From an archaeon (GTDB lineage Archaea; Nanobdellota; Nanobdellia; Woesearchaeales; UBA9642), in contig JAGVGF010000002.1 in NCBI GenBank assembly GCA_020057295.1, positions 24,776-88,775 on the forward strand: a stretch of DNA of 64,000 nt, in the 5' to 3' direction. Shown here piece after piece: positions 744 through 32,289 of the stretch; within the stretch, counting starts at the first letter, position 1; the number at the start of each line of letters is the position of its first letter. Made by a program: the position numbers and the translations under genes. The notes beneath the pieces were generated by a model. It was not told the origin of the DNA and did not search any database. It worked only from the letters and a program-made list of their open reading frames with translations.

Positions 744-762
744 GAAAATTATAAAAAAATGT

Positions 763-960: not shown

Positions 961-1023
961 TTTGTTCTTCTCCTATTTGGTCGGTTACGACCGTTTTTCC
1001 CAAGGCTTTTTGCCAAAAAGGCT

Positions 1024-1419
1024 TTATCTGTACGAAGTTTGAGTACTAGCTCTTGCCTGACCATGATGGTTTGGCTTTCCAGCTTCTCTAACCCTAATAT
1101 CTGCAACTAGTAAGTGTCTATCATATTCTAGGAATACTTCTTTTAATTTAGTATTGTAAGCAACTAAAGCTCTTGCAACAGCAAGTCTTGCAGCGTCAGC
1201 TTGATTAATAACTCCGCCGCCCTTAACTCTTATATCAATATCAACTTTTGATGCAACATCGCCAGCTAACATTAATGGTTCCATAATCTTTAATTTTGAT
1301 AGTTGCGGACTAAATATTTTCAAATCCATACTATTAACAGTAATCTTACCATTGCCATCAGATAATACTGCTCTAGCAATTGATTGTTTTCTTCGTCCAC
1401 TTGTGATAATATTTTTCAT
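1024..1419 (-). CDS. rps9: 30S ribosomal protein S9 (uS9)
   Basis: 131 aa with a C-terminal ...HHGQARASTQTSYR tail typical of uS9. Operon context L13-S9-RpoN. Confidence 0.9.
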   Translation of the reverse strand: MKNIITSGRRKQSIARAVLSDGNGKITVNSMDLKIFSPQLSKLKIMEPLMLAGDVASKVDIDIRVKGGGVINQADAARLAVARALVAYNTKLKEVFLEYDRHLLVADIRVREAGKPNHHGQARASTQTSYR

Positions 1420-4758: not shown

Positions 4759-5589
4759 ATGAAGGAGACATATCTTAAATTTAAATTCAAAGATGTAGAT
4801 ATCAAAGTGTGTGTAACTATTTATGGAGATTCTGGTAAACAGTTATTGTGTTTACATGGTTTTGGTAGTTCTGGTAAAGATTTTGAAGATTTAGAAAAAT
4901 ACATGCCAGGTTATCAGATAGTTGCTATTGACTGGATAGGATTTGGTGATAGCAGCAAACCATTAAGAGAGATTGATACTTATGACGAGAAGTATTTAAC
5001 ATCATTCCTAGAACTTTTTATTAAGAAAGCGGTTCAGAAAAATATTCTACAAAAAAAGTTTAGTATATTAGCAGTTTCAATGTCTGGATTAATGACTGGA
5101 ATGGTTTATGATAATATAAAGAAACATTTAGAAAAACTTATTTTCTTAAATCCAGCTGGATTTGATAAAGATGTTAGTATGAAATTTTCAATGGTCATGG
5201 CCAATCCCTTACTAAAGAGAGAAGCATTCATTAAATTAATTACGAAAGATGTGTTTTGGAAAGAATTCTTAGGATTACACGACAGGGATAAAGTACAATT
5301 ATGGTCTAAAGTAGGAAGTGGAGAGTTTGAAGTATATCTACGATGTATTAATACATCTATGAGTATGACTGGTTCAATAAAAGATACACATATACATCAT
5401 AATTATCATGAAATAAAAGTTCCGGTATTAATGATTGGAAGTTATAGAGATACATTAATTACAGAACAAGAATATTTGCGTAAGGCATCAAAATATGGTT
5501 GGGATGTTGTAATAATACATCATTATGATCATATGATAATTAGCGAGAAGCCAAAAGAGATTGCAAAAGCAATAACAGATTTCTTATAA
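4759..5589 (+). CDS. alpha/beta-fold hydrolase
   Basis: 276 aa. LHGFGSSGKDF oxyanion/HG motif and a nucleophile-elbow-like SMSG (consensus GxSxG). Confidence 0.55.
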   Translation: MKETYLKFKFKDVDIKVCVTIYGDSGKQLLCLHGFGSSGKDFEDLEKYMPGYQIVAIDWIGFGDSSKPLREIDTYDEKYLTSFLELFIKKAVQKNILQKKFSILAVSMSGLMTGMVYDNIKKHLEKLIFLNPAGFDKDVSMKFSMVMANPLLKREAFIKLITKDVFWKEFLGLHDRDKVQLWSKVGSGEFEVYLRCINTSMSMTGSIKDTHIHHNYHEIKVPVLMIGSYRDTLITEQEYLRKASKYGWDVVIIHHYDHMIISEKPKEIAKAITDFL

Positions 5590-5622
5590 ATTACGAATGT
5601 ACTCCGACAATTCTTAAGATAA

Positions 5623-5632
5623 CTATATAAAT
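5623..5632 (+). promoter_or_regulatory. TATA-box-like element (ctatataaat) about 30-40 nt upstream of ATG 5663
   Basis: Consensus-like archaeal TATA (TATATAAA) at an appropriate distance from the start codon. Pattern only. Confidence 0.3.
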
Positions 5633-5662
5633 CCAAATATACTCTTAATTTTAGGTGATATC

Positions 5663-6127
5663 ATGGAAGATAAAACAGCAAAATTAATTGTAAAAATTAT
5701 CGCGATATTAGGATTCATTTCCGCAGCATTACTTATTGTGATGGGTGTGTTACTATTTTTGCAACTACAAAGTCCTGGTTGTGTAACCACAGGCGGATCA
5801 ACAAAATGTATCTCGCAAGATCTTGCTTCAAAGATTAATACTGAATATATTGTTGGAGGAATATTATTTATCATAGGCGCATTATTTGTAGTATTCGTTA
5901 ATATAAAATTATGGAACTATAAGAATTGGGCTAGAATATTAACTATGGCAGGATGTTTCTTATCGGTTGTATCATCATTTGGAGAAACATGGATTTTTAT
6001 AGTACTCTCTGTCATATTTAACGGCGTAATAATATATTTCTTAGGCATAGAACCATCTATAGTTAACTTATTTCAGAAAAAGACAGAAACAAAGAAAGTA
6101 AAGCCAAAGAAGACGAAAAAGAAATAA
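5663..6127 (+). CDS. small membrane protein (4 predicted TM helices, lysine-rich C-terminus)
   Basis: 154 aa with hydrophobic segments and a KKTETKKVKPKKTKKK tail. Confidence 0.45.
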   Translation: MEDKTAKLIVKIIAILGFISAALLIVMGVLLFLQLQSPGCVTTGGSTKCISQDLASKINTEYIVGGILFIIGALFVVFVNIKLWNYKNWARILTMAGCFLSVVSSFGETWIFIVLSVIFNGVIIYFLGIEPSIVNLFQKKTETKKVKPKKTKKK

Positions 6128-6187
6128 TTTTTATTTTTTTCTCTACTTTTCAGTAATATTTTTAAATCGTTCTTTGTACCTATTATC

Positions 6188-7024
6188 ATGGGGGTAGAAC
6201 TTGTAGTTTTAGATTTCGATGGAAATTTAACCAATGTAGATATTGAAGCTATCCCATTTGTTGAAAGTTATAAAACAGATTTTTCTAACACGCTTAATAT
6301 TGAAAGGCCTAAATTAGATTTGATTTGGGCGCATAAACAATCACTCATAGAATCAAATCCTTCGGCTTATGGATGGACTGTTAATGGAATGATTGTTGCA
6401 CCAGCATATGCTGACCCATTAATAATGTCAAGAACAATTGCAGGAATTCTACTTAAAGATTCAGGAATTACAGACGAATCAATAAGATCAAAAATGTTAG
6501 ACTCATTCTTTCAAAATAGTTATGGAAAGCTAGGGATTTCATTTAAAGAAGATGCTGACAGATTCTTATCAGGATTAAAAGAGAATATCGCTTGTTGTGT
6601 AATGACTAATTCAAAAACTGATGGTGTTGTAAAGAAGATTGCAAAATTACCCACAGACCATTCTGACATAGTTGTTTATGGAGATGCAAAGAAGTATCTT
6701 GTAACACCGGAATGGGAAGGTGTTGTTCCTAATTCAATAGAAAAAGATGGTTTTGGAAGACCATTATTTGTACGTAGACAACAATATTGGAATGCACTAC
6801 ATGCACTTATGCAAAAATATCATCTTCATCCAGAAAATGTTGCAGTAGTAGGAGACATATACGAACTTGATTTATTACTTCCAGAAATGGTCGGAATGCA
6901 CACTATATTAACGCCACGTGAAAAGACACCGGCTTTTGAGATTAATGCTGTTCTACAATCTCGTAAAGGATATGTTGCACAAAGTTTAGACGATGCATTA
7001 GACTATTTATTAATAATTAAATAA
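6188..7024 (+). CDS. HAD-superfamily hydrolase
   Basis: N-terminal VLDFDGNL (HAD motif I DxDG) and late VVGDIYELD (motif IV). Confidence 0.5.
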   Translation: MGVELVVLDFDGNLTNVDIEAIPFVESYKTDFSNTLNIERPKLDLIWAHKQSLIESNPSAYGWTVNGMIVAPAYADPLIMSRTIAGILLKDSGITDESIRSKMLDSFFQNSYGKLGISFKEDADRFLSGLKENIACCVMTNSKTDGVVKKIAKLPTDHSDIVVYGDAKKYLVTPEWEGVVPNSIEKDGFGRPLFVRRQQYWNALHALMQKYHLHPENVAVVGDIYELDLLLPEMVGMHTILTPREKTPAFEINAVLQSRKGYVAQSLDDALDYLLIIK

Positions 7025-7039
7025 TTCTTGTAGAAAGAT

Positions 7040-7489
7040 TTATTTTTCTTTAATACTACTTACATCTTTGATGGTTATCCATGCACATGCATTGCCGAAC
7101 CCTTCCTTATTGATATTAAAGGGTTTAATTTTTTGAACATTCTCTAAAAATACTAATATACAATAATTTTTTCCATCATAATAATCCGTATATTCAAGTG
7201 AGTTAAATCCTATAGCTCGACCATATTTTTGTATGATTGGCATTATCTTCTCTTTATTTAAATCATCAAAGAACAACACATCTTTCACTTTTGCTTTTAC
7301 AGTAATTGGTTCACCACAATCCTTAAAATATATTATATCTTCTTTTTTTATATTATGCCAAGGAGTTCTTTTAGTCTTATACCATCGACTTTCTATAGTT
7401 TTCTGACCAGAAATAATTTTTTGCAATAATCTTCTCTTTTTATCAAGAATAGCTATGTGATCCATAAAGCTCAATGTATTAATTTTCAA
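7040..7489 (-). CDS. ASCH-domain protein
   Basis: 149 aa with an ISGQKTIESRW (GxKxxExR) ASCH signature near the N-terminus. Confidence 0.45.
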   Translation of the reverse strand: MKINTLSFMDHIAILDKKRRLLQKIISGQKTIESRWYKTKRTPWHNIKKEDIIYFKDCGEPITVKAKVKDVLFFDDLNKEKIMPIIQKYGRAIGFNSLEYTDYYDGKNYCILVFLENVQKIKPFNINKEGFGNACAWITIKDVSSIKEK

Positions 7490-7500
7490 TAATAAACAAG

Positions 7501-7574
7501 GGCGGCCCGCGGGATTTGAACCCGCCCGAGAAGATCCACAGTCTTCTATGCTGCCAGGCTACATCAGGGCCACC
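7501..7574 (-). tRNA. tRNA-His (anticodon GUG) with genomically encoded G-1
   Basis: Hand-folded on the minus strand. G-1 plus GUGGCCC acceptor pairing with GGGCCGC-C73, D stem AUGU/GCAU, anticodon stem GAAGA/UCUUC with loop CUGUGGA, T arm GCGGG-UUCAAAU-CCCGC. Confidence 0.8.
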
Positions 7575-7612
7575 ATAATAAAGAAAGAAAATAAAGTTTG
7601 TTTAAAAAGGTT

Positions 7613-7807
7613 TTACTTCTTCTGTAGTAATTTATATTGAAATGTTCCTAATACTATTCCTAAAACTACGAATGCCCATGCAATTGGAATTAGCACTTCT
7701 ACATTATCTTGTGCTGCAAGTAATACTATTACTGCAATCACCATAAACACACCGCCTATTATTCCTGCTAAATCTGTTATTGGATTCCTATTTTTTGCTT
7801 CTGCCAT
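7613..7807 (-). CDS. small membrane protein (64 aa, 2 TM)
   Basis: Hydrophobic 64-aa ORF next to tRNA-His. Confidence 0.35.
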   Translation of the reverse strand: MAEAKNRNPITDLAGIIGGVFMVIAVIVLLAAQDNVEVLIPIAWAFVVLGIVLGTFQYKLLQKK

Positions 7808-7883
7808 ACTATTACCTCCTAATTATGTTATTATGCTTATTATTAATATCAATATTTATATATTTCATCATTTCCAAAGTAAT

Positions 7884-8618
7884 ATGGATAATCTTGATCA
7901 AGTAGGACAGCATTACATGATTGATAAGAAGTTAATTGAATTTATAGTAGATTCAGCAGATTTGAAAAAGACAGACGTAGTTCTTGAAATTGGTTATGGT
8001 AAGGGCGCATTAACAAAAAGTTTAGTTAAAAAATGTAAAGTCGTAGCGGTCGATATCGAAGAGAATGATTTAGATTTTATAGATTATAAATTAACTATTG
8101 TTCACAGTAATATTCTTGATAATTTTGAAGAATTGAATAAAAAATATCACTTTAATAAAATTGTTTCAAACATTCCTTATAATATTTCAGAACCTTAGAT
8201 GAGAAAAATATTTAAGACGGAAATACAATTGATAGTAATGACTGTTGGTGAAGATTTTGCTCAAGTCTTATCTAATGATAAAAGTCGTGTAGGGATAATT
8301 GCAAATTCACTTTATAATTTTAAGATACTTAAAATTGTTCCACCAAAAGTTTTCAGACCAATGCCTAGAGTTAATTCTGCTGTTATTTCATTAGACTTAG
8401 TTAAATCTAATGCGATTTCAAAAATGTATAAACAATTACTTTCTTTAGATGATAAAAAATTAAGAAATGCATTCGAGAAGATTCTTGTTGATAGAACAAA
8501 ACGTGAAGTCAAAGAGTTAACAACAATGCCTTTATTTTTGAAAAAATTTTACGAACTTGACAATAATGAGTTTGTGTTATTAAATAAGTTCATACATCTT
8601 CTATGTATGGAAAGATAG
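7884..8618 (+). pseudogene. ksgA: 16S rRNA (adenine-N6,N6)-dimethyltransferase KsgA/Dim1, interrupted by an in-frame TAG at 8196-8198
   Basis: ORF 7833..8198 contains the KsgA motifs QHYMID, EIGYGKGALT and NIPYNISEP. It ends at TAG and continues in the same frame as ORF 8199..8618 (MRKIFK...VPPKVFRPMPRVNSAVISL), which aligns to the KsgA segment after the NLPYNIS(T/S)P motif. Both ORF starts are congruent mod 3. Confidence 0.6.
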
Positions 8619-8675
8619 TTACTATTTAGTAGTTACAATAGTAAACTTTATAAATCTGTGATTTTTTCTTAGAAT

Positions 8676-9461
8676 ATGAACTTAATAAAAGGCACTATGG
8701 AAAAATTAGAAGGAAGAGTAGCGGTTTACTCTAGGTTTATCCCTAATCCTAATGGTGATTGTAAAGATTGTAATCCTATTTTTTCCAATAGAGTTTTAGC
8801 GATGTATGGTTCAGAAAGTATTACAGAAATATCTGACATTTTAGGAACTCCTAAAGAATTTCTAAACAAGATGATGAGCGATGATGATCAATTAAAAGAT
8901 TTACTAGGCAGTTCTAAAGAAGGAAGAAACATTTATGTTTCACCAATCGTTGCAACAGTGGAAGATCATGTTAAATCATACTCTGGTGATATCATATTAT
9001 CAGGAAGTTTCAGTTGTCCAATAAAATGTATTAAAGCAAATATGATGAATATGGAATTATACGAGATGCATTATGACGAGCAAGTGAGTAGATCAACAGG
9101 AATTAATGTTCAACACGCAAAAGAGCATAAAGGTACAAGAGTTTTATACGATAGAAAAATTCCTTCTCTAGAATTAAGAAATATTTTAATGAACGAATAT
9201 ATTATACCTTTATTAGATGCTTCAACTAGTGGAGAAAAAGCGTATTTTGATGATGTTAGAAGTGGATTAATATTATTCAGTCAAGGTTCAGATTTCAAAC
9301 CAGATGTTAGAGCATTATGCGAATGGATAGAATTAGCTAAGAAAAATATGAATCCTAAAGTAGTAGAATGTTATATTGACAAAATGGTTGCAATACATAC
9401 TGAAGAATATTTAGTCGCAAAACAGAAAGATGATGCTATAAAAGCATTACTAAAAGTATAA
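8676..9461 (+). CDS. hypothetical protein with two Cys pairs (GDCKDCNP / CPIKC)
   Basis: 261-aa ORF. Possible Zn-binding Cys pairs. No confident family assignment. Confidence 0.4.
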   Translation: MNLIKGTMEKLEGRVAVYSRFIPNPNGDCKDCNPIFSNRVLAMYGSESITEISDILGTPKEFLNKMMSDDDQLKDLLGSSKEGRNIYVSPIVATVEDHVKSYSGDIILSGSFSCPIKCIKANMMNMELYEMHYDEQVSRSTGINVQHAKEHKGTRVLYDRKIPSLELRNILMNEYIIPLLDASTSGEKAYFDDVRSGLILFSQGSDFKPDVRALCEWIELAKKNMNPKVVECYIDKMVAIHTEEYLVAKQKDDAIKALLKV

Positions 9462-9462
9462 A

Positions 9463-10677
9463 TTATTTCATTTTGAGAATTTCTTTAGTCTTTTCTACGA
9501 ATATTTTAGCTTCCTCTTCTGTATTATACAAATAAAATGAAGCACGTGCACTTCCATCAATTTTATTATCATTAAACCATGAATGTACACAATGTCTTCC
9601 AGATCTAATCATTATGTTTGCATACGAGTCAAGCAACAATGCTACTTCATGATGGTCCATCTTATTTTTTGCATTAAATGAAAATATTCCTGATCTAAGT
9701 TTCGGATCTTGTGGTCCTAAAATGTTCACGTGAGTATTTAATCCTTCAGTAATTATCTTGTTAAGTTTTAATTCATGAACGTGTATATCATCAATATATT
9801 TCTTTAAATATTCTACTGCTGCTCCAAGTCCTATAAAACCTGCATAGTCTTGCAATCCTGCTTCGTAACGTTCTGGTAATTGTGTAAATGTTGCACCATC
9901 ATATGTTGTATCATCAACAGTACTTCCACCAGTAATAAATGGATCTAATCTATTCAAAAGTTCTTCTCTACCATATAATACTCCAGTACCGCTCGGACCG
10001 AGCATTTTATGACCAGAAAATGCTAAGAAGTCTACATCTAATTTTTTCACATCAACAGATTTATGCGGAACACCTTGTGCAGCATCAAGCATTACAACAG
10101 CATCATATTTACGTGCAATATTAACAATTTCTTTTAACGGAATACTTGTACCATCCATATTACTAGTTTGTACCATTGACACAAATGAACGATTACTATT
10201 AGATTTAGCATGTTTTAATACATGTTCAAAATGTTGCAAGTCAAAACCTTCTTTAGTACTGATTCTTTCTCTACGTAAACCTTGTTGTCTCGCGACTAGT
10301 TGCCACGGTATAAGATTAGAATTATGTTCCTTATCTGTAGATATTATTACATCACCTTTATGAAATTTAAAAGATTTAGCAACAAGATTAATACCCTCCG
10401 TAGTATTTTTCGTAAATATTATTTCCTTATCAGATTTTGCGTTAATAAATTTTCTAATGATAGAACGTGATTTACTAAATTCTTCAGTAGCCATTTTACT
10501 AAGTTTATGATGACTTCTTCCAGCACATGCAGGATAATTATAATAATACTCATTCATCTTTTCAATGACTTGTCTAGGTCTTAAAGTCATACAAGCATTA
10601 TCAAAATATATTATTGGCTTGCCATTTAAGCCATTCTTTAGAATCGGAAAATCTTCACGCACTTTTAAAACATTCAT
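9463..10677 (-). CDS. sufS: cysteine desulfurase (class V aminotransferase, SufS/NifS-like)
   Basis: 404 aa. PLP-lysine region FLAFSGHKMLGPSGTGVLYG and a C-terminal RSGRHCVHSW active-site Cys loop. Confidence 0.8.
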   Translation of the reverse strand: MNVLKVREDFPILKNGLNGKPIIYFDNACMTLRPRQVIEKMNEYYYNYPACAGRSHHKLSKMATEEFSKSRSIIRKFINAKSDKEIIFTKNTTEGINLVAKSFKFHKGDVIISTDKEHNSNLIPWQLVARQQGLRRERISTKEGFDLQHFEHVLKHAKSNSNRSFVSMVQTSNMDGTSIPLKEIVNIARKYDAVVMLDAAQGVPHKSVDVKKLDVDFLAFSGHKMLGPSGTGVLYGREELLNRLDPFITGGSTVDDTTYDGATFTQLPERYEAGLQDYAGFIGLGAAVEYLKKYIDDIHVHELKLNKIITEGLNTHVNILGPQDPKLRSGIFSFNAKNKMDHHEVALLLDSYANIMIRSGRHCVHSWFNDNKIDGSARASFYLYNTEEEAKIFVEKTKEILKMK

Positions 10678-21638: not shown

Positions 21639-22226
21639 ATGACAAAAAAACACGAAACCAAAAAAGATTATGTATTTCATGCATCTCCGGTGCAGAATCT
21701 TCATGAGATAAGTCCTCATGAATCCGAAGCGTATATAAGATTGCATATGCAGTTTCCTGCAGTATTTGCATGTAAAACAAGTGATATTGCAGCAGTATTT
21801 CTAGGACACCTAGGTGGAGATAGCACTTGCGAAATAAGATTAGAACATTCCATACCAGTACTTTACGAAAAATTTGCTGGAGCATTCCATTTAAGATATG
21901 GTGCTGATAATGGTATTAAAAGACAAGGATCAATATATGTTCTCCCAAGAGAAACTTTTGTTAAGAGAGCAGTATGGGTTGGAGGATTAGCTTCCGAACA
22001 ACCAGTAGTTCCATTATTTGAGATGAAGATACCGGATGTAGAATCATATTTAAGAATGTTAAATGCAGATAATAGGATATCGATTAAATTGCATGATGGT
22101 TCTAATGCTGCTAGTAGGCATTATGCTGAAGAACAACTAAGAAGCGATAGTCCAGGTGCTACAGAACTAAGAAAGTATCATCCAAGTATAATTGAGTTCT
22201 TAGAAAAAAAGAAAAAACATCATTAG
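21639..22226 (+). CDS. hypothetical protein (195 aa)
   Basis: ORF only. Ends with TAG followed by further stops. Confidence 0.35.
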   Translation: MTKKHETKKDYVFHASPVQNLHEISPHESEAYIRLHMQFPAVFACKTSDIAAVFLGHLGGDSTCEIRLEHSIPVLYEKFAGAFHLRYGADNGIKRQGSIYVLPRETFVKRAVWVGGLASEQPVVPLFEMKIPDVESYLRMLNADNRISIKLHDGSNAASRHYAEEQLRSDSPGATELRKYHPSIIEFLEKKKKHH

Positions 22227-24655
22227 TTATGTAATCCTAATTTTTTTTCAGTCTCGTACACCATCATTGTTGTTTTAATTACTGTGTCTGATGTTAGACT
22301 GATGCTTTGAATTCCTGATTCTACAACGAATTTTGCAAATTCTGGATACGTACTTGGAGCATCTCCGCAAATTCCTATATATTTTTCTCTTCTATTACAA
22401 ACTTCAATTACGGATTTTACTAATGTTTTTATTGCATCATTTCTTTCATCAAATACATGGCTTACAACTTCTGAATCCCTATCAACTGCAAGTGTCATTT
22501 GTGTTAAATCGTTTGATCCAATTGAAAATCCGTCAAAGATATCCATAAATTGATCTGCAAGAATTACGTTGCTTGGAACTTCGCACATTGCATAAACTTT
22601 AAGTCCATCTTGTCCTCGGACTAATCCGTTGTCTGCCATAACTTTTAAGACTTTATTTCCTTCAGTTATAGTTCTACACATTGGAATCATTATAATAATA
22701 TTTTTTAGTCCGTATTCATTTCTAACTTTTAGTAATGCTTCACATTCCATTTCGAATCCTTTAATATATTTTGGATCGTAATATCTTGCTGCGCCTCTCC
22801 AGCCTATCATCGGATTATCTTCTTTTGGTTCAAATTCTTTTCCGCCGATTAAATTTGCGTATTCATTCGATTTAAAATCAGAGAGTCTTACAATAACTGG
22901 TTTCGGATAGAATCCTGCTGCGATCATTCCTACGCCTTGAGCAAGCTTTTCCACATAGAATCCTCTTTTTGTTGGATATGCTGCTGTCATTTTTGCAATT
23001 TTTTGTTTTGCTTCTTGATCTTTTAAATTATCAAATCCTAAAAGTGCGAGAGGATGCGCTCCAATTGCATTGTTAAGAACGAATTCTTCTCTTGCTAAAC
23101 CTACTCCATCATTTGGAAGGAAACTTAATTCGAATGCTTGACTTGGATCTCCGACATTCATCATTATGTGCGTCTTTGGCCTTTTTAATGTTCCAAGATC
23201 TAATTCATTAACATCAAATATTAATTGTCCATCATATACAAATCCTTCATCTCCTTGTGAGCAATCAACTGTGACATTTTGTCCTTGTTTTATTTTATCT
23301 GTTCCTTCAGTTGTTCCTACGACACACGGAATTCCAAGTTCTCTTGAAATAATTGCTGCATGGCAAGTTCTTCCTCCACGATTTGTTACAATTGCTGAAG
23401 CGATTTTCATTATTGGTTCCCAATCAGGATCAGTCATTTCAGTTACTAATACTTCTCCTTTTTTGAAAAGTCCAATATCTTTTACGCTTTTAATTACATT
23501 TGCAGTTCCTTTTCCGATTCTTGAACCAACACTTTTTCCTTTTACAACAACTGGTCCTTTTTCTTTTAAGGCGTATGTTATCATTTTTGTAATGTCTTTT
23601 TTACTTTGAACTGTTTCTGGTCTTGCTTGTACAATAAATAATTGTCCTGTTATTCCATCTTTTGCCCATTCCATATCCATAGGTTTTAAGTGTCCTGCTT
23701 TTGTTGAATAATGATCTTCGATTGTGCAAGCCCATCTTGCAAGTGTTAAAACTTCTTCATCAGTCATGCAGAATTTTGCTCTTTCTTCATCAGGAACTGA
23801 AATGTTCTTTGTAGGTTTGGTTCCTTGTAAATCATAGACTAATCTTTGTTGTTTTGAACCAACGTTTTTTGAAATTATTGGTTTAAATCCGTTTTTTAAT
23901 GTTGGTTTAAAAACATAGAACTCGTCAGGATTAACTGCTCCTAAAACAATGTTTTCTCCAAGACCATATGATCCAGTCACTAAAACTGCATCTTTAAATC
24001 CTGATTCGGTATCGATAGAAAACATAACTCCTGAACATGCTAAGTCAGAACGAACCATCTTTTGAACACCAACACTTAATGCAATTGAAAAATGATCAAA
24101 ATTCTTGTCTACTCTGTATGAAATTGCACGATTTGTAAATAATGATGCAATACATTTTTTTACAGCTTCTAAAATTTGATAATCTCCGCGAATGTTTAAA
24201 TAAGATTCTTGTTGTCCTGCGAATGATGCATCTGGTAAATCTTCAGCTGTTGCTGAACTTCTTACTGCAACATCAGTATCTGATCGATCTTTATTGTATG
24301 CGCCACATAAATCTCTATACGCGCTTAGAACTGCAACTTTTAATTCGTTAGGAAATTCCGCTTTTAGAATTGTTTCTCTAACTTTATGTCCTCTTTCTTG
24401 AAGATTTTGCATATCTCCTGTGTTTAAGTCTGATAAAATTTCTTTAATCCTATTTTTTATTCCTGCTTTTTCAAGGAAATATCTGTAAGCATATGCAGTT
24501 AGTGCAAATCCGTTTGGGATTCTAACTCCTTTAGGAGTAAGGTTTACATACATTTCACCAAGTGAAGCATTTTTTCCGCCGACATACTGAACATCGTCAT
24601 TGCTTAATTGATCAAACCAAAGAATAAACATGCTACTTTTATCCACACAAACCAC
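22223..24655 (-). CDS. ppsA: phosphoenolpyruvate synthase (pyruvate, water dikinase)
   Basis: 810 aa. N-terminal ...VGGKNASLGEM ATP-grasp region, central phosphohistidine domain (GGRTCHAAIISRELGIPCVVG) and a C-terminal PEP-utilising domain. Confidence 0.88.
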   Translation of the reverse strand: MVCVDKSSMFILWFDQLSNDDVQYVGGKNASLGEMYVNLTPKGVRIPNGFALTAYAYRYFLEKAGIKNRIKEILSDLNTGDMQNLQERGHKVRETILKAEFPNELKVAVLSAYRDLCGAYNKDRSDTDVAVRSSATAEDLPDASFAGQQESYLNIRGDYQILEAVKKCIASLFTNRAISYRVDKNFDHFSIALSVGVQKMVRSDLACSGVMFSIDTESGFKDAVLVTGSYGLGENIVLGAVNPDEFYVFKPTLKNGFKPIISKNVGSKQQRLVYDLQGTKPTKNISVPDEERAKFCMTDEEVLTLARWACTIEDHYSTKAGHLKPMDMEWAKDGITGQLFIVQARPETVQSKKDITKMITYALKEKGPVVVKGKSVGSRIGKGTANVIKSVKDIGLFKKGEVLVTEMTDPDWEPIMKIASAIVTNRGGRTCHAAIISRELGIPCVVGTTEGTDKIKQGQNVTVDCSQGDEGFVYDGQLIFDVNELDLGTLKRPKTHIMMNVGDPSQAFELSFLPNDGVGLAREEFVLNNAIGAHPLALLGFDNLKDQEAKQKIAKMTAAYPTKRGFYVEKLAQGVGMIAAGFYPKPVIVRLSDFKSNEYANLIGGKEFEPKEDNPMIGWRGAARYYDPKYIKGFEMECEALLKVRNEYGLKNIIIMIPMCRTITEGNKVLKVMADNGLVRGQDGLKVYAMCEVPSNVILADQFMDIFDGFSIGSNDLTQMTLAVDRDSEVVSHVFDERNDAIKTLVKSVIEVCNRREKYIGICGDAPSTYPEFAKFVVESGIQSISLTSDTVIKTTMMVYETEKKLGLHN

Positions 24656-24815
24656 CCTCTTTTATTAAATAATTATGATAGGACTCTAAAGAAGAGTATC
24701 TCACCCCTTTTCCCCGAGTCCTTAATCTTGATAATAGTTAAAAATCTGCCGCATGAGTATATAAAGTTTTGTTATTATTATATAGTAGAATTATCTTATT
24801 TATTGTCTATTTATC

Positions 24816-25449: not shown

Positions 25450-27762
25450 GTGTGTATGCTTTTTGGCAATCCAAATAGTTCTTATGATGTAGTTAAGGAA
25501 GGCGAAGAGACAGTCCTTAGAATGGATTATGAGAATTCTTTAGAAGTACCTTCACTTGAAGATTCTGAAAAATGTATGGCTGATACTATTGAAAAGTTGA
25601 TGGCCAATAGAAATATTACTAAAATAGTCTTCAGCCAGAAACGTGATTACGAGTACGATTTTCCTCAAACGCGTGTGCTTGTAGAATTTTCTAAAGTATT
25701 TTCTAACATTATCAAACATAAAGCTGTATTCAATTATCGTGCGATGACATTGAATGAACCTTCACCAATAATTCTTAATGCCGCTACACAAAAATATTCC
25801 GAGTTGCAAAACATTTTATTTAATTTGATGAAGAAAGATCCTGTTGGTGCATATGTTGAATTAAAACGTTTAGTTAGAAAAGAGAAAATTGAGTTAGATA
25901 AGAGTGTTGATGATGTATATACTGCAATGCTTGAACGTTACATTCAAGTACTAAATTATGTTATTAAAGTTTTAGAAACAACAAAATTAATCGAGATTGC
26001 CACACCACATCTTAGTGGAATGCAGCTTGGTGATAGAAGTATCTATAGAAGAATATTCACTCCAAATATTAAGCCGGATTTCATGTTTACAAAAATTATG
26101 TCTTCATATCCTAAGAATGGTATTGAAGTTGACAGTTATAGTGTAAAAAATTCTGATGTAATAATTTTCAAGCTACAACATAATGTACAAAATTTATATC
26201 ACATCACTCCTCCAGAATTTAAGTTGCCAGAAGAAAAATATGAAATTCTAGATTTAGCAAGAAAGATTATGGCAGAACATCAGCCAGAACGTCAAGAATT
26301 CGTTGACCCTGCAAGAATGAGAGAAGTATTCACAAATATTGGTCGTGACTTAATTGAAGAACTTGCAGAGTATAAGAATGTTAAATTAAAACATGCTGAA
26401 GTTGAAGAGCTTGCAAAAATTTTAGTAAGATATACTGTAGGATTCGGAATTATTGAAGCATTACTTGAAGATGATAAGATTCAAGATATTACAATCAATA
26501 GTCCTATGGGTCAAGTTCCAATATTTTTAGTCCATCAAGATTATGATTATTGTAGAACAAATTTAGTACCAACGATCAGAGATGCTGAAAGTTGGGCTTC
26601 AAAACTTAGAATGATTTCCGGAAGACCACTCGATGAAGCAAACCCTATTCTTGACACTGAAATATTAATTCCTGGTACAGCAAATGCGAGAGTCGGGGTT
26701 ATATCTCCTCCATTAAACCCGACTGGATTGGCCTACGCGTTCCGTAGACATAGAGATAAACCTTGGACTTTCGCATTATTTATAAAAAATGGGATGATGA
26801 ATGCACAAGGAGCAGGATTAATGTCTTTCTTAATTGATGGTTCAAGAACTATGTTAATTGCAGGAACTAGGAGTTCAGGTAAATCATCATTATTAGGTGC
26901 ATTAATGGTTGAGATAATGCGTAAGTATAGAATGATAACAATAGAAGATACATTAGAATTACCAGCAGAGTCATTAAGAAAATTAGGATATAATATTCAA
27001 CAGATGAAAGTAGGAAGTGCACTATCTAAAGGATCAAGCGAAGTATCTGCTGAGGAAGGGATTAGAACAACATTAAGACTTGGAGACTCGTGTCTATTTG
27101 TAGGAGAGGTTAGAAGCACAGAAGCTAAATCATTGTATGAAGCAATGCGCGTAGGAGCACTTGCAAATGTTGTTGCAGGTACAATTCATGGAGATAGTCC
27201 ATACGGTGTATATGATAGGGTTGTTAACGATTTAGGAGTTCCAAAAACATCATTCAAAGCAACAGATATTATCGTTGTAGCAAATCCTATAAAGTCTGCC
27301 GACGGATTACATAGATGGCGTAGAGTTACTCAAATTACAGAAGTTAGAAAACATTGGACCAATGATCCTGTTGAAGAGAAAGGATTTGTAGATTTGATGA
27401 AGTATGATTCTAAAAAAGATGCTCTTGTTGTATCTGATGATTTACAAAATCAAGATAGTGATATCATAAAAGCTATTGCTGAAAATGTTAAGGAATGGAG
27501 CGGAAACTGGGATGCTGTATGGGATAATATTATGTTACGTACAAAAAATTATCAGACAATGGTAGATTATGCTACACAATTAAATAATTATGATATCTTA
27601 GAAGCAAGATTTGCAATAGAAGCAAACGATCAATTCCATAAGATTACAGATAAAGTCAAAGAAGAAGTTGGAGTTATGGATAGTAAAAGAATATTTTTTG
27701 AATGGAATGAATGGTTAAAAAGATCTGTAAAAGAGTATGATGCAAGACATCACAAGAAATAG
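25450..27762 (+). CDS. type II/IV secretion-system ATPase (FlaI/GspE/VirB11 family), N-terminally extended
   Basis: 770 aa. Walker A AGTRSSGKSSLLGAL and Walker B/Asp-box region SCLFVGEVRSTEA. Confidence 0.7.
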   Translation: MCMLFGNPNSSYDVVKEGEETVLRMDYENSLEVPSLEDSEKCMADTIEKLMANRNITKIVFSQKRDYEYDFPQTRVLVEFSKVFSNIIKHKAVFNYRAMTLNEPSPIILNAATQKYSELQNILFNLMKKDPVGAYVELKRLVRKEKIELDKSVDDVYTAMLERYIQVLNYVIKVLETTKLIEIATPHLSGMQLGDRSIYRRIFTPNIKPDFMFTKIMSSYPKNGIEVDSYSVKNSDVIIFKLQHNVQNLYHITPPEFKLPEEKYEILDLARKIMAEHQPERQEFVDPARMREVFTNIGRDLIEELAEYKNVKLKHAEVEELAKILVRYTVGFGIIEALLEDDKIQDITINSPMGQVPIFLVHQDYDYCRTNLVPTIRDAESWASKLRMISGRPLDEANPILDTEILIPGTANARVGVISPPLNPTGLAYAFRRHRDKPWTFALFIKNGMMNAQGAGLMSFLIDGSRTMLIAGTRSSGKSSLLGALMVEIMRKYRMITIEDTLELPAESLRKLGYNIQQMKVGSALSKGSSEVSAEEGIRTTLRLGDSCLFVGEVRSTEAKSLYEAMRVGALANVVAGTIHGDSPYGVYDRVVNDLGVPKTSFKATDIIVVANPIKSADGLHRWRRVTQITEVRKHWTNDPVEEKGFVDLMKYDSKKDALVVSDDLQNQDSDIIKAIAENVKEWSGNWDAVWDNIMLRTKNYQTMVDYATQLNNYDILEARFAIEANDQFHKITDKVKEEVGVMDSKRIFFEWNEWLKRSVKEYDARHHKK

Positions 27763-27800
27763 ATTTAGAAAAATAGTTTATAAAAAATAATTATCATAGA

Positions 27801-30095
27801 ATGTTTTTAAAAAAGAGGTTGAGTGTGGAAAAGACAGATTCCAAAAATCTAAAAAGTTTCGAATCCAAATATCGTGAAAAGATTAAGGAAGAATTTGATA
27901 ATTATAAAGGTAAGGAGAGTCCAGAATCCAGTATTCAATCTAGACAGTATCAAGAATTTAAGAAGCAGTGGATGCCAAAAAATTTTACACTTTACGAGAA
28001 AGCATGTTCGTTTTCTGAAAATCTTCTAAAGATTGAACCAGACCCAAGAGAGGCTGCAAAGATTAAGGAAGCGATAGAAACATGTCATATGAATGCTACT
28101 CCTGCAGGTGTTAAAAGTTTCTCGTTTGTTGGACCTTTAATGTTAATAATAGCAGTAACTGTTCTAAGTTTTATACCTATGCTTTTAGATCCTCTTGCCG
28201 ATCCTGCATCTGCAATGTTCTTCGTAATATTTGCCGTAGTATTAGGATTAATATTAGTTGTTCCATTAAGTAAACTTCCAGAATTTTTAGCGGCTAGTTG
28301 GCGTATGAAAGCAAGCAATCAAATGGTTCTTGCAGTATTCTACATTGTAACATATATGCGTCACACAAGCAATCTTGAAAATGCTATCGACTTCGCTGCA
28401 GAACATTTACCTCCACCATTATCATTGGATTTGAAAAAGATTATGTGGGATGTTGAGACACAAAAATATTCTGGTGTTAAAGAAAGTTTAGATGCATACC
28501 TTGAAGGTTGGAAGAAAGATAATATGGAATTTGTAGAGGCTGTGCATTTAATAGAATCTTCATTATATGAAAATTCTGAATCTAGAAGATTAAATTCATT
28601 AGAGAAATCTTTAACGTTAATACTTGATGAAACTTATGAGAAAATGTTGCATTATGCACATAATCTTCAAGGTCCTCTAACAATGTTGAATATGCTCGGC
28701 ATTGTTTTACCCATTCTTGGTCTAGTAATCTTGCCTTTAGTTGTTAGTTTTATGGAGCAGGTTAAATGGTATCATTTAATGGTTATGTATAATGTTGCTT
28801 TGCCTGTCGGTGTGTATTATCTTAGTCGTATGGTTTTAAGCACTCGACCAACTGGTTATGGTGATACTGACATTTCTGAAAATAATCCTGAATTAAAGAA
28901 ACATAAGAATATTTTATTAAATTTTGGTGGTAAAGAATTTCAGTTACATCCAATATTTATTGCAAGTTTTTTGTTTGGAATGTTATTCTTTATAGGTATT
29001 AGCCCACTCATAATGCATCTTGTAGTTCCAGAATTTGATATGGCCGTTGATCAGGAATATAATGTACGTGTATTAGCTAGTCCTACTAAATGTGATAATG
29101 CTGTACCGCCCGCACCGATGAAATTTTATCTGCTCGGTTATAAATGTGATAAGAATGGAGATCTGCTTGGACCGTTTGGAGTTGGAGCGGCTATACTTAG
29201 TTTATTTATACCATTAAGTTTTGGTATTGGTTTAGGAATATATTACAAACTACGTTCAGAAAATGTTATGAAAATTAGAGATGAGTCTAAAAAGTTAGAG
29301 AATGAATTTGCTGGAGCATTATTTCAGTTAGGAAATAGGATTGGTGATGGCTTGCCTGTAGAAATTGCATTTTCTAAAGTTGCTGATGTAATGAGTGGGA
29401 CAGTTAGTGGAAAATTCTTCGAGTTAGTAAGCGTAAATATTACTAAATTAGGAATGAATGTTGAGGAAGCAATATTTGATCCTAAACGTGGTGCAATAGT
29501 ATATTACCCTAGCAGTTTAATTGAGAGTTCAATGAAAGTACTTGTTGAATCTAGTAAGAAAGGTCCTCTCGTCGCGTCTCAAGCATTAATTAATGTTTCC
29601 GAATATATTAAGCAGATACATCGTGTTGATGAAAGATTAAAAGATTTAATGGCCGATACAATAAGTAGTTTACAATCACAAATTAGTTTCTTAACGCCTG
29701 CAATTTCTGGAATAGTAATTGGTATAACATCAATGATTACTGGAATAATTGGTAATTTATCTGATAATATGAAGCGTTTAAGTCAAGGAATTGGTGGAGA
29801 AGCAGGTAGTAGTGCAGGACTGGGTTTTAGCCCAGATTTTTTTGGAATAGGTATACCAACATTTTATTTCCAATTTATTGTAGGAGTTTATGTTGTACAA
29901 ATAATCTATATAATGACCGTACTTGTTAATGGAATAAGAAATGGTTCTGATAGCTTAGCAGAAAGATATATGTTAGGAAAGAATTTAATGAACAGTACGA
30001 TAATGTACTTCTTCATAGCTTTAGTTGTAATGTTAATATTCAACATGGTAGCAGGACTAGTAATGGGTAATGTGGGAGTTACAGCAGGAACATAA
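27801..30095 (+). CDS. polytopic membrane protein, probable FlaJ/TadC-like platform partner of the ATPase
   Basis: 764 aa, many TM helices, immediately downstream of and co-oriented with the ATPase. Assignment is by context and topology. Confidence 0.45.
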   Translation: MFLKKRLSVEKTDSKNLKSFESKYREKIKEEFDNYKGKESPESSIQSRQYQEFKKQWMPKNFTLYEKACSFSENLLKIEPDPREAAKIKEAIETCHMNATPAGVKSFSFVGPLMLIIAVTVLSFIPMLLDPLADPASAMFFVIFAVVLGLILVVPLSKLPEFLAASWRMKASNQMVLAVFYIVTYMRHTSNLENAIDFAAEHLPPPLSLDLKKIMWDVETQKYSGVKESLDAYLEGWKKDNMEFVEAVHLIESSLYENSESRRLNSLEKSLTLILDETYEKMLHYAHNLQGPLTMLNMLGIVLPILGLVILPLVVSFMEQVKWYHLMVMYNVALPVGVYYLSRMVLSTRPTGYGDTDISENNPELKKHKNILLNFGGKEFQLHPIFIASFLFGMLFFIGISPLIMHLVVPEFDMAVDQEYNVRVLASPTKCDNAVPPAPMKFYLLGYKCDKNGDLLGPFGVGAAILSLFIPLSFGIGLGIYYKLRSENVMKIRDESKKLENEFAGALFQLGNRIGDGLPVEIAFSKVADVMSGTVSGKFFELVSVNITKLGMNVEEAIFDPKRGAIVYYPSSLIESSMKVLVESSKKGPLVASQALINVSEYIKQIHRVDERLKDLMADTISSLQSQISFLTPAISGIVIGITSMITGIIGNLSDNMKRLSQGIGGEAGSSAGLGFSPDFFGIGIPTFYFQFIVGVYVVQIIYIMTVLVNGIRNGSDSLAERYMLGKNLMNSTIMYFFIALVVMLIFNMVAGLVMGNVGVTAGT

Positions 30096-30145: not shown

Positions 30146-30793
30146 ATGATTGTTAAACAAATTTCTAAAAACATTTACTTAATTAAATTCAAGACGAGAA
30201 ATGATTTGACATCAACGTTATTAAGATTTCAAGAACATTATGAATCACCAAAATTTAAAGGCAAAATATTCACGCTTGAAGAATATAAGAAATGGTATAT
30301 TAAAAACTCTCCTAAAGGCATAAAGACTGGAAAATTTACGTACTATAAGGATTGGAGCGGATTTAACATTCCATCACACATATTACAACCATTTTATAGA
30401 GGATTATTTAATCCATTAACAGAAGCGGAAAAATCTATATTACACGTTTTTAATAAAATAAGAAATAAAAAATTCTATATAATCGGAGTATATGGTGATG
30501 TCGATAAAAGTATACTGAAACATGAGATAGCTCATGGAATGTATTATTCAAATAATAATTATCATAAGGAAGTAAATGCTGTTCTTAAAAAGATGGATTC
30601 AATTGCAGTCAAACAAATTATTAAGTATTTCAAGAAAAATGCAGGATATCATAAAGATGTATATTTAGATGAAATTCATGCATATACACTTACAGAAAAA
30701 GGTTTATTAAAGAAGCGTGGTGTAGATGTTCATAGAATTCTTAATACACGTAAAGAATTACTACAATTATTTAAGAAATATTCTTCTAGATAA
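30146..30793 (+). CDS. hypothetical protein with HEIAH (HExxH) metallopeptidase-like motif
   Basis: 215 aa. Single ILKHEIAHGMYY motif, otherwise unassigned. Confidence 0.35.
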   Translation: MIVKQISKNIYLIKFKTRNDLTSTLLRFQEHYESPKFKGKIFTLEEYKKWYIKNSPKGIKTGKFTYYKDWSGFNIPSHILQPFYRGLFNPLTEAEKSILHVFNKIRNKKFYIIGVYGDVDKSILKHEIAHGMYYSNNNYHKEVNAVLKKMDSIAVKQIIKYFKKNAGYHKDVYLDEIHAYTLTEKGLLKKRGVDVHRILNTRKELLQLFKKYSSR

Positions 30794-30835
30794 TACTAAA
30801 AATTTATAAATAGTTCATATCATTAAGTTTATCTG

Positions 30836-31372
30836 ATGTCAATACTTTACCACGGTACGAATATTAGAAATGGTATAATCTATTCTTCACATAATGCATT
30901 ATTGTCTTCTTTTGATATTCAACTTGAACAATTAAGAGCTGCAGGCGGTACTACTAATCCTATGGATAATAAATCTTTAGAGAAATTAGCCAGTGATTTA
31001 AGAGCTTTAGAAATACGGAGGTATGAACATAAACATGATCGTGCAGTTATTGTTACTGAAGATTTTGATACTGCTCTAACTCAATCAAAACTTTCTATTA
31101 CAGAAAATTTTGTTGGAAAACATCTAATCTTGGGTTTAAATCTTGATAACTCTATAGTTAACAGATTATCGCCTGATGGTGACGTTTATAGTTTAATGAT
31201 TCCTAGAAGATTACCATTAACTGGACTTGTAGAATTATATTTTGAACATACTCCAACAAATTTACGTGCTATGAAACTGGCTTTTGGAAGATTTAACCCT
31301 ACATATCTACAATTATCAGATTATCACGAAGAAACAGATCCTGTCGTAATTTCTCAAAGCGTTACACTTTAA
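30836..31372 (+). CDS. ADP-ribosyltransferase-fold-like protein (N-terminal LYHGT motif as in Tpt1/KptA/PARP H-G-S/T)
   Basis: 178 aa beginning MSILYHGTNIRNGIIYSS.... The H-G-T plus downstream Tyr pattern recalls the NAD-binding motif of the H-Y-E clade (E. coli KptA has FLYHGT). Confidence 0.35.
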   Translation: MSILYHGTNIRNGIIYSSHNALLSSFDIQLEQLRAAGGTTNPMDNKSLEKLASDLRALEIRRYEHKHDRAVIVTEDFDTALTQSKLSITENFVGKHLILGLNLDNSIVNRLSPDGDVYSLMIPRRLPLTGLVELYFEHTPTNLRAMKLAFGRFNPTYLQLSDYHEETDPVVISQSVTL

Positions 31373-31532
31373 CTTTAGTGTATTGTCCAATGCAATGTTT
31401 ACATGGCTTATCATCATGTGAACATCTATGCGTGCAACATCCAAAGTGTACAAACCCTTTATGATTATCACATAGAACTAAGCTATCTGGACTCTTCTCA
31501 AAATCTCCTGTACAGATTTTACAATTATCCAT
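31362..31532 (-). CDS. small Cys-rich zinc-ribbon protein (56 aa)
   Basis: Hand translation MDNCKICTGDFEKSPDSLVLCDNHKGFVHFGCCTHRCSHDDKPCKHCIGQYTKVKV with CxxC...C...CC..C...CxxC. Overlaps the 3' end of the 30836..31372 ORF by 11 nt, convergently. Confidence 0.3.
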   Translation of the reverse strand: MDNCKICTGDFEKSPDSLVLCDNHKGFVHFGCCTHRCSHDDKPCKHCIGQYTKVKV

Positions 31533-31597
31533 ATATTCACCCCTTACAATAATATACGGTAAAAACAGTATTTAAAGTTTATTGAAAAATAAGAAAA

Positions 31598-31671
31598 TGG
31601 GACGACTGAGATTTGAACTCAGGACATCTACGGCTTCAGCGTAGCGCTCTCCCAGGCTGAGCTATCGTCCC
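31598..31671 (-). tRNA. tRNA-Phe (anticodon GAA), no encoded CCA
   Basis: Hand-folded. Acceptor GGGACGA/UCGUCCC, D stem GCUC/GAGC, anticodon stem CUACG/CGUAG with loop CUGAAGC, T arm CUGAG-UUCAAAU-CUCAG, discriminator A. Confidence 0.85.
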
Positions 31672-31701
31672 ATTAATGCCTGTAGTAAAAAGATTAATTG
31701 T

Positions 31702-32289
31702 TCATTTAAATAGGTTATGTTTTTTAGTCTTCAAATCATATAATTTGCCAACTTGTATTTTCTTGTGATAAAAGAATAATGTTCTTTCAATGTCTCTTAC
31801 ATTGACATTAAATTGAACAGAATATTTTCTAAGTATTGTGAGATATGTTAGCCAGTCTTTTAGATTAAATCCTTGGCCGCCAGGTTTAGTTTTTACCTCG
31901 CCGTACTTATACAGCAATTGCCATACGCGTATATCTATTATTCCATAATTTTTTGGATCTGTAATTGTCAAGAGTGAGGATGCTACTGCAACAGATACAC
32001 CTTTTAGAGATGTTAAATATTGCATCTTTTCTTCTTCAGATTTCGTCGTAATTACTTTCTGTGATACTTTCTTGATTACTTCTTCAGAATTGTTTAGATA
32101 ATGATTTTTTGGCCTTGGAGTCTTCCACATCGCTACAGTATAGAATTGATCTTTTGTTAAGAGTTTCTTTCTTTTTACATCACTTAAATCTTTTATTAGT
32201 TGAATTGCTTCCTCAGTCTCTGATGCAGATAAATTATTTTTAATTAGTTCGTTGAGATTTTTATATTCTTTACTCATTTCACTAACCAA
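31702..32289 (-). CDS. helix-hairpin-helix DNA glycosylase-like protein (possibly 8-oxoG glycosylase type)
   Basis: 195 aa. LKGVSVAVASSLLTI resembles an HhH element. Weak assignment. Confidence 0.3.
   Translation of the reverse strand: MVSEMSKEYKNLNELIKNNLSASETEEAIQLIKDLSDVKRKKLLTKDQFYTVAMWKTPRPKNHYLNNSEEVIKKVSQKVITTKSEEEKMQYLTSLKGVSVAVASSLLTITDPKNYGIIDIRVWQLLYKYGEVKTKPGGQGFNLKDWLTYLTILRKYSVQFNVNVRDIERTLFFYHKKIQVGKLYDLKTKKHNLFK

Follow-up and report, generated by a model that had tools for sequence, protein, structure and literature searches.

Do three small genes that lie side by side next to a tRNA gene form a functional unit, or are they neighbors by chance? The question is raised by a stretch of 64,000 nucleotides (the window) from a Woesearchaeota (DPANN) chromosome, spanning positions 24,776 to 88,775 of contig JAGVGF010000002.1 in GenBank assembly GCA_020057295.1. 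Relatives retrieved through the gene for replication factor C place the organism in this group. In this window, open reading frame (ORF) A (30146..30793, plus strand) encodes a 215-amino-acid protein with the sequence HEIAH at residues 126-130, and ORF B (30836..31372, plus strand) encodes a 178-amino-acid protein that starts MSILYHGTNIRNGIIYSS and contains the motif YHGT. A 56-amino-acid Cys/His-containing mini-ORF, here called the Zn gene (31362..31532, minus strand), is convergent with ORF B. The first-pass annotation, made from the sequence, proposed that these genes constitute a toxin/immunity cassette at tRNA-Phe (GAA), a classic type of integration site; ARAGORN places this tRNA at 31597..31672 on the minus strand, with its 3' end toward the three small genes. 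All four features are present where that annotation placed them. ORF A and ORF B share a strand, with 42 nucleotides between them, the 3' end of ORF B overlaps the Zn gene by 11 nucleotides, and 64 nucleotides separate tRNA-Phe from the start codon of the Zn gene. The explanation we somewhat favor is the chance adjacency of three independently inherited genes, encoding a zincin-type protein (ORF A), an ADP-ribosyltransferase (ART)-like protein (ORF B) and a PHD/RING-like zinc finger (Zn gene). The three would then occupy a gene-turnover slot between tRNA-Phe and a pilus-like ATPase/membrane protein operon.

None of the three is a chance ORF. ORF A is a real gene because it has more than 580 homologous clusters, and ORF B because about 20 distant full-length relatives retain the YHGT block. 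The Zn gene, which is also a gene in the source annotation, is real because it is 78-82% identical in two related genomes, with all Cys and His ligands invariant. The ORF B start codon at 30836 is the first after the preceding in-frame stop, and the N-terminus that it defines is conserved across the family.

ORF A, ORF B and the Zn gene do not form a module. To compare loci, we anchored 66 of them on the neighboring gene for the large subunit of replication factor C (RFC), mapped the window genes and tRNAs onto each, and scored co-occurrence by searching the ORF A loci and the ORF B loci with tblastn and blastp. Outside the window, there is not a single case of ORF A and ORF B relatives occurring together in any locus for which DNA is available, contrary to the proposal of a two-gene cassette. 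The conserved co-occurrence of a type II toxin-antitoxin pair is thus missing for ORF A and ORF B. The homologue closest to the ORF A protein (74% identity, locus L080) is in a wholly different neighborhood, and the contexts of ORF A relatives are unrelated to one another, including ribosomal proteins, RuvA/RuvX, G6PD, Nop10/PAC2 and phage genomes; no recurring partner was found in the contexts examined. One observation points the other way. On the contig of P0004 (no DNA), which carries an ORF A homologue 72% identical to that of the window, the layout fits ORF A followed by a gene on the same strand. It is the sole sign of a second such pairing, which may exist in one further close relative.

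Comparison with close relatives shows how variable this position is. The closest relative, L014 (RFC 85% identical), has the gene order RFC, tRNA-Phe, Zn gene (78%), membrane gene, ATPase, and lacks both ORF A and ORF B. In blastn comparisons with L014 and L052, combined with the synteny map, DNA homology between the window and L014 stops at about 30045 and restarts at about 31390. The segment without a DNA counterpart in L014 (30045..31390) therefore runs from the 3' end of the pilus-like membrane gene to the 3' end of the Zn gene and contains ORF A and ORF B. In L052 (RFC 79%), tRNA-Phe and the Zn gene (82%) are accompanied by an ORF B homologue, P0123, with 36% identity, and the place of ORF A is occupied by a 94-amino-acid DUF3850/ASCH gene. 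Presence of the two ORFs at the same tRNA-Phe locus thus varies between related genomes: both are absent in L014, and L052 has an ORF B homologue without ORF A. L014 and L052 also each have different small genes in the interval from the tRNA to the Zn gene. In the more distant L021, the membrane gene directly adjoins tRNA-Phe. The tRNA itself is kept beside the same operon in L014, L052, L020 and L021, and is a landmark of the variable region.

These comparative data already largely refute the proposal that ORF A and ORF B are a toxin/immunity or nucleic-acid-modifying module, made up of a minimal ART toxin and an ImmA/IrrE-type partner, at tRNA-Phe. In its favor are the same-strand arrangement and short spacing of the two genes, the absence of the segment from L014, the possible repetition of the layout on the P0004 contig, the PIN gene (L010) and ASCH/DUF3850 gene (L052) that adjoin ORF B homologues, and the divergence of ORF B, which, as in conflict genes, is faster than that of its flanks (36% compared to about 80% identity). 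Against it stand the lack of co-occurrence in other loci with DNA, the lack of a recurring partner for ORF A relatives in the contexts examined, and the absence of any ImmA/IrrE signal in ORF A. In addition, the pair is accompanied by neither an att repeat nor a GC break, a scan of ORFs out to about 10 kb showed no integrase, and searches of viral contigs and GenBank phages, which did not extend to plasmids, failed to recover ORF B. We consider such a module very improbable. Here, a neighboring tRNA and a pair of suggestive motifs did not add up to a toxin/immunity island.

Could the segment nevertheless be the remnant of a virus or mobile element that was inserted beside tRNA-Phe and has lost its integration machinery? 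The ORF A family is common on viral contigs and in jumbo phages, the GC content of ORF A shows a mild dip (0.26-0.28 compared to about 0.31 in the surroundings), and close relatives differ in the whole tRNA-Phe neighborhood, where L052 has a 5.3-kb insert. However, a scan of ORFs out to about 10 kb identified no integrase, although several of these ORFs have no family match, and no capsid, terminase or att sequence was found at the locus. The window contains no second copy of the tRNA-Phe 3' end when up to three mismatches are allowed, and no meaningful repeats flank the segment, which is only about 1.3 kb long. ORF B is absent from the viral collections, and its relatives occur in chromosomal contexts. 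Of the features expected of a tRNA-targeted element, presence/absence polymorphism at the same tRNA was found, and an integrase and a repeat of the tRNA 3' end were not. We consider a degraded element improbable, and the locus gives no sign of integration at tRNA-Phe, with no integrase in the scanned region, no tRNA 3' repeat and no compositional break. Because the segment and other inserts vary between relatives without signs of integration, we regard the tRNA-Phe neighborhood as a gene-turnover slot with no recognizable integrated element. The L052 insert (5260-9887) lies between RFC and tRNA-Phe relative to the window and encodes two large Ser/Thr/Asn-rich proteins (629 and 894 amino acids) that resemble surface proteins; it is followed by a 160-amino-acid helix-turn-helix protein at 9884-10366.

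If these genes are inherited separately, what does each encode? ORF B belongs to a small family that is restricted to DPANN archaea. A word-index search recovered only ORF B itself, an exhaustive phmmer search recovered six full-length relatives with 24-37% identity, and a profile search extended the family to about 20 clusters at 22-37% identity, the few named ones all being DPANN (Woesearchaeota, Nanoarchaeota or “archaeon”). With eight further loci from a metagenome scan, the family has about 30 known members. No relative was found on viral contigs (with the tighter alignment) or in GenBank phages; plasmids were not searched. In an alignment of 21 sequences, Y5, T8, L23, L99 and L131 are invariant, and H6, G7, I16, A17, A21, I22, S24, A52, G96 and F150 are at least 90% conserved. 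The family signature is M-x-x-(V/L)-Y-H-G-T-x4-G-I-x-I-A-x2-G-A-I-L-S-P. Each protein consists of a near-invariant N-terminal block (Y-H-G-T...I-A..G-A-I-L-S), a variable helical insert of about 40 residues (approximately residues 27-65), and a conserved core. Because the window and L052 proteins share 36% identity while the flanking proteins share about 80%, the family diverges fast everywhere except at its N-terminus. At the DNA level, only the first 29 nucleotides of ORF B, which encode the YHGT motif, can be aligned between the window and L052.

A gene resembling pyruvate phosphate dikinase (PPDK) or phosphoenolpyruvate synthase lies within a few kilobases of ORF B relatives in three lineages (window 22223-24655, minus strand; L003 6503-9292; L169 1-1517). 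This proximity suggests that the family is chromosomal and loosely syntenic rather than carried on a mobile element, and it is the context in which ORF B relatives are often found. The genes directly upstream of two ORF B homologues encode a PUA-like DUF3850/ASCH protein (L052 11854-12138, minus strand; E=1.8e-12) and a PIN protein (L010 229-690, plus strand; E=2.5e-5). DUF3850/ASCH and PIN proteins are nucleic-acid-related and often tied to conflict systems. These two neighbors are a hint and do not constitute a recurring association.

The most plausible counterpart of the conserved core of ORF B is the NAD+ lobe of Tpt1/KptA, which has the ART fold and binds NAD+. With no RNA-binding lobe, the protein would be a putative stand-alone NAD+-binding ART-like domain. 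We regard this assignment as plausible, while placing it below an even chance. Tpt1 is a conserved housekeeping or repair enzyme. Both families have (L/V)YHGT followed by a helix that ends in G-(A/L)-(I/L) and, in the same order, a basic residue, a V-x-x-S strand, an Ala-containing helix and a hydrophobic strand. Unlike Tpt1, all ORF B family members start 4-11 residues before HGT and lack the N-terminal winged-helix RNA lobe, as the first-pass annotation had recognized, and they have their own helical insert of about 40 residues after the first helix. In Tpt1, the winged-helix lobe carries the Arg-His-Arg of an essential Arg-His-Arg-Arg tetrad, the His and Thr of the HGT motif bind the 2'-OH of the NAD+ ribose, and the NAD+ lobe contributes Arg121 of the tetrad together with Arg139 and Arg140, which cage the NAD+ phosphates (PMC6333775). 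A conserved R/K of the ORF B family (consensus EHRVK) aligns near Arg121, whereas the columns aligned to Arg139 and Arg140 are variable, with no conserved counterpart. ORF B is thus not a Tpt1, because it lacks the RNA lobe and the phosphate cage while keeping HGT and a basic residue near Arg121. The ORF B family also differs in being fast-diverging and restricted to DPANN, in having no Pfam PTS_2-RNA match, and in showing a similarity that falls below significance when its sequences are not edited. If the assignment is correct, ORF B would bind NAD+ and then transfer ADP-ribose to some target, or hydrolyze or sense NAD+.

Profile comparisons provide evidence for this fold. When the insert (residues 27-65) was removed, hhalign matched the ORF B core to the Tpt1 lobe with 54.8% probability and P=1.2e-4, and none of 150 block shuffles reached this score. 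The alignment contains 52 colinear columns covering YHGT, the first helix, the R/K and V-x-x-S strand, the Ala-containing helix and the hydrophobic strand. As calibration, Tpt1 compared to DarT, two true ART families, gave a score of 22.8 (8.5% probability), which the insert-removed core exceeds; an unrelated profile scores 14. With a hidden Markov model (HMM) of the Tpt1 lobe, KptA ranked first and unmodified ORF B members ranked 5, 8, 10, 15, 16 and 21 of approximately 2,450 sequences. The reference alignments of the Tpt1 NAD+ lobe and DarT used in these comparisons were small, consisting of E. coli KptA and deposited PDB sequences.

Several results weigh against an ART fold. ORF B has no relevant match in Pfam, NCBIfam, PADLOC or the PDB, even at permissive thresholds, and neither scans of family members against Pfam and PADLOC nor PDB hmmsearch with the family profile, with the insert in or out, gave anything relevant. 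A single-sequence AlphaFold2 model was useless, with a predicted local distance difference test (pLDDT) score of 34. With the unedited family, hhalign gave 11.7% probability against Tpt1 (P=0.0025; score reached by 0/200 column shuffles and 23/200 block shuffles) and 4.8% against DarT (1/120 block shuffles). This test is under-powered, since Tpt1 and DarT, although true ART families, score no better against each other. The boundaries of the excised insert were chosen by the analyst. Because the ART hypothesis arose from seeing YHGT, the comparison was repeated with this motif masked in both profiles; the best match again fell on the segment downstream of it, but the similarity was weak (P=0.013; 3/150 or 28/150 shuffles). 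Position H6 is Tyr in one family member, the candidate catalytic Glu (E133) is conserved in about 80% of members, and the Tpt1 phosphate-caging arginines have no conserved counterpart. No conserved Tyr can be assigned for the H-Y-E clade either; the closely following tyrosine (Y16) that had been counted as part of the motif is at a position that is Ile in the family. The first-pass interpretation as a whole is partly supported; for its minimal ART-fold enzyme, the conservation of YHGT and the insert-removed match to Tpt1 speak in favor, and the lack of database matches and the weakness of the similarity once YHGT is masked speak against.

An alternative that we rate as approaching an even chance is that ORF B has a lineage-specific DPANN fold unrelated to ARTs, in which YHGT is convergent or a chance occurrence and forms, for example, part of another ligand site or a protein-protein interface. 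No database method gave a significant match, the motif-independent similarity is marginal, neither H6 nor E133 is invariant, the arginine cage has no counterpart, and the look-elsewhere effect is large for a four-residue motif picked by eye. Such a fold is harder to reconcile with a colinear, multi-block match to the Tpt1 lobe that beats all shuffles once the insert is removed, with a score no lower than that of two true ART families compared through equally thin alignments, and with the crowding of ORF B members toward the top of the Tpt1-lobe HMM ranking. Moreover, YHGT starts a strand-helix unit, as predicted from a reading of the sequence, just as it does in ARTs.

DarT was also proposed as a relative of ORF B. 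DarT (DUF4433) is the single-stranded DNA thymidine ADP-ribosyltransferase toxin of the DarTG system. In both families, the protein opens with the block h-Y-H-x-T...I-l..G-x-L-l-s, and an insert separates this block from the core strand that comes next. hhalign pairs roughly the first 29-57 columns, the extent varying with the query alignment used, and 1/120 and 0/150 shuffles scored as high. However, the probability is only 5-7%, nothing aligns past the N-terminal block, and there is no match to DarT in Pfam or to any system in PADLOC. No macrodomain (DarG) match was obtained among the neighbors checked near ORF B or its homologues. On these grounds, ORF B does not qualify as a member of DarT/DarTG.

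Other candidate functions for parts of ORF B were considered and rejected. Many ORF B relatives contain G-E-H-E-I-E-H-R-V-K (window residues approximately 62-72), which is absent from several others and from the window protein, where the sequence is YEHKHD-R. The R and K of this EHRVK block are invariant in an 11-member subset. The HExxH-like sequence HEIEH within it is not treated as a metal site, as it is conserved in neither the window protein nor the family. A 2H phosphoesterase (HGT plus IHLS) was dismissed, the second His being Y, F, A or I in many members. Residues 104-156 gave a match to a SUMO/ubiquitin-like domain when the single sequence was used (tandem SUMO2, E=1e-3; single SUMO2/3 chains, E of approximately 0.5-1.5), which we rejected as probably due to chance because the signal disappears with the family profile.

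In contrast to the narrow distribution of the ORF B family, the ORF A family is large. A word-index search recovered 581 homologous clusters with approximately 45-75% identity, named as Woesearchaeota, Nanoarchaeota, Patescibacteria/Candidate Phyla Radiation (CPR) bacteria and others, none of which has a Pfam domain. Relatives were confirmed on 160 viral contigs in IMG/VR. Jumbo phages (XacN1, Xoo-sp13) and an uncultured phage of 642 kb also carry relatives, and a Megaviridae protein structurally matches the ORF A model (E=2.6e-6). Horizontal spread appears to connect the members in DPANN archaea and CPR bacteria with those in marine phages, jumbo phages and giant viruses. ORF A and three viral members have no meaningful match in Pfam, NCBIfam or PHROG. 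A literature search found no description of either the ORF A family or the ORF B family.

ORF A is likely to be a cytoplasmic zincin-type zinc metallohydrolase, most likely a peptidase, and its family a large, uncurated one of such predicted enzymes. In an alignment of 106 sequences, with identity down to approximately 31% and viral members included, 14 residues are strictly invariant: R27, Q29, E30, E33, Y51, Y66, G72, N74, H126, E127, H130, Y168, D175 and E176. An AlphaFold2 model based on a 39-sequence alignment (pLDDT 95) has an N-terminal alpha/beta part, a helix (121-135) containing HExxH, and a helical C-terminal part in which D175-E176 lie on helix 170-183. In the Pro-Pro endopeptidase PPEP-3, His153, Glu154 and His157 are on the active-site helix, the oxyanion Tyr190 follows 33 residues later and the zinc ligand Glu197 a further 7 residues on, and in PPEP-1 the third zinc ligand is within an acidic tandem (PMC12828418). 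Order and spacing are comparable in ORF A, where Y168 is at +38 and D175-E176 another 8 residues on. The proposed active site is H126-E127-x-x-H130, Y168 and D175-E176. If ORF A is read in the light of PPEP-3, zinc would be bound by H126 and H130 of the active-site helix together with E176 of the D175-E176 tandem, E127 would act as the general base, and Y168 would be the oxyanion-stabilizing tyrosine; R27, Q29, E30, E33, Y51, Y66 and N74, in the N-terminal alpha/beta subdomain, probably shape the substrate site. This arrangement of HExxH on a helix with a downstream Glu and Tyr, as seen in the alignment and the model, is consistent with the gluzincin (ATLF/M34-like) pattern. The ATLF-like/M34-type zincins include the Pro-Pro endopeptidases PPEP-1, PPEP-2 and PPEP-3 and anthrax lethal factor. 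One result weighs against this reading: no peptidase Pfam match reaches threshold. The model, although confident, is weakly zincin-like, and a Foldseek search with it against the PDB gave no match.

ORF A is not an ImmA/IrrE protein, the identity that the first-pass annotation had tentatively suggested for it. Both are small cytoplasmic proteins with an HExxH motif of the zinc-peptidase kind, and both occur in phages. However, ORF A gives no ImmA/IrrE signal, and the combination expected of Peptidase_M78 (DUF955) proteins, a profile or fold match and pairing with an Xre-type repressor or toxin, was not found.

Several observations were made on ORF A relatives and their surroundings. The name “ABC transporter ATP-binding protein” is attached in NCBI/GenBank to P0013, P0021, P0053, P0070, P0118, XacN1 ORF432 and the Xoo-sp13 protein, records that span CPR bacteria, DPANN archaea and jumbo phages. 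This name looks like a propagated misannotation because the family has no match to an ABC family in Pfam or NCBIfam and has an invariant HExxH. The XacN1 homologue adjoins a MazG gene. Across 80 viral ORF A loci, the sole recurrence among neighbors reflects the synteny of one phage group (IscA/IscU/SpeD-like) and is uninformative about function; this viral group, about 37 of the loci L081-L160, has IscA-, IscU-, SpeD-, DNA-methyltransferase- and HAD-like neighbors, as judged by reading their sequences. Beside the 74% identical homologue in L080 are two tandem genes of 113 amino acids (476-1180, minus strand), toxin-antitoxin-like in appearance, and a fragment resembling a HerA/FtsK-type ATPase.

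The Zn gene is a separately conserved gene, and its sequence points to a PHD/RING-like zinc finger. Its ligands are spaced C4-x2-C7-x13-C21-x2-H24-x4-H29-x2-C32-x11-C44-x2-C47, and among the 80 small ORFs of the window no other has at least two CxxC pairs. Every Cys and His is invariant in the orthologues in L014 and L052, which retain the gene independently of ORF A and ORF B. No Pfam family match was obtained. The sole full-length match to a PDB profile was the PHD finger of MTF2 (2yt5, E=0.23), with ligands in register. Like PHD/RING cross-brace fingers, including the prokaryotic RING-like treble-clef proteins, the Zn gene product has eight ligands in the same spacing pattern; it differs in that its fourth ligand is His and in being a stand-alone 56-amino-acid archaeal protein. 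The additional conserved residues C33, H35, C37 and H46 could form a different or third site.

The data show that the three genes are real and unlinked, how their families are distributed, that the locus varies, and that ORF A has conserved residues of a catalytic type and a confident model; the peptidase chemistry of ORF A and the fold and NAD+ use of ORF B are inferred. We view the ORF A and ORF B families as new variants within known superfamilies, with the putative ART fold of ORF B as the most interesting claim. If this fold is confirmed, it would add a minimal, DPANN-specific archaeal branch to the ADP-ribosyltransferase superfamily, and it would bear on the origin of Tpt1, which has been proposed to be an NAD+ lobe fused to a winged helix. 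More speculatively, and in our estimation doubtfully, the ORF B family may be a minimal stand-alone Tpt1-type NAD+ lobe in which a helical hairpin replaces the winged helix, acting as a fast-evolving NAD+-dependent effector of DPANN archaea (ADP-ribosylating nucleic acid or protein, or serving as an NADase or NAD+ sensor) at turnover hotspots, with ORF A representing a new zincin family common to DPANN archaea, CPR bacteria, phages and giant viruses. The ORF A family is well conserved, has several hundred known members, from ultra-small archaea and bacteria to giant viruses, and is without a Pfam, NCBIfam or PHROGs model. Its recognition as a probable zinc hydrolase corrects a spreading, unsupported annotation and marks the family as a tractable target, given its confident model and clear candidate catalytic residues.

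The genes that border the three small genes are more stable. The conserved flanking operon (25450..30095, plus strand), which forms the stable border of the variable slot, encodes a 770-amino-acid ATPase that matches Pfam T2SSE (E=6e-15) and a 764-amino-acid protein that has no family match and reads as a polytopic membrane protein. A T2SSE-type ATPase and a protein of about 760 amino acids are paired and syntenic with RFC in more than 20 loci (L014-L051; Woesearchaeota and Nanoarchaeota), at 55-86% identity, and may be the core of a pilus or archaellum-like assembly system. A scan for bacterial promoters and terminators was set aside as inapplicable to an archaeon and returned fewer sites than expected by chance. 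On the other side, the downstream flank on the minus strand consists of an OGG-like glycosylase gene and RFC. The glycosylase-like gene (31702..32289, minus strand; 195 amino acids) is between tRNA-Phe and RFC, overlaps RFC by 16 nucleotides, and matches Pfam Ogg-HhH weakly (E=7e-4), the NCBIfam N-glycosylase/DNA lyase model (E=3e-8) and PHROG 24538 (E=3e-14). It was not detected in L052, and in L014 its position is taken by a gene for a 148-amino-acid CxxCxxCC protein.

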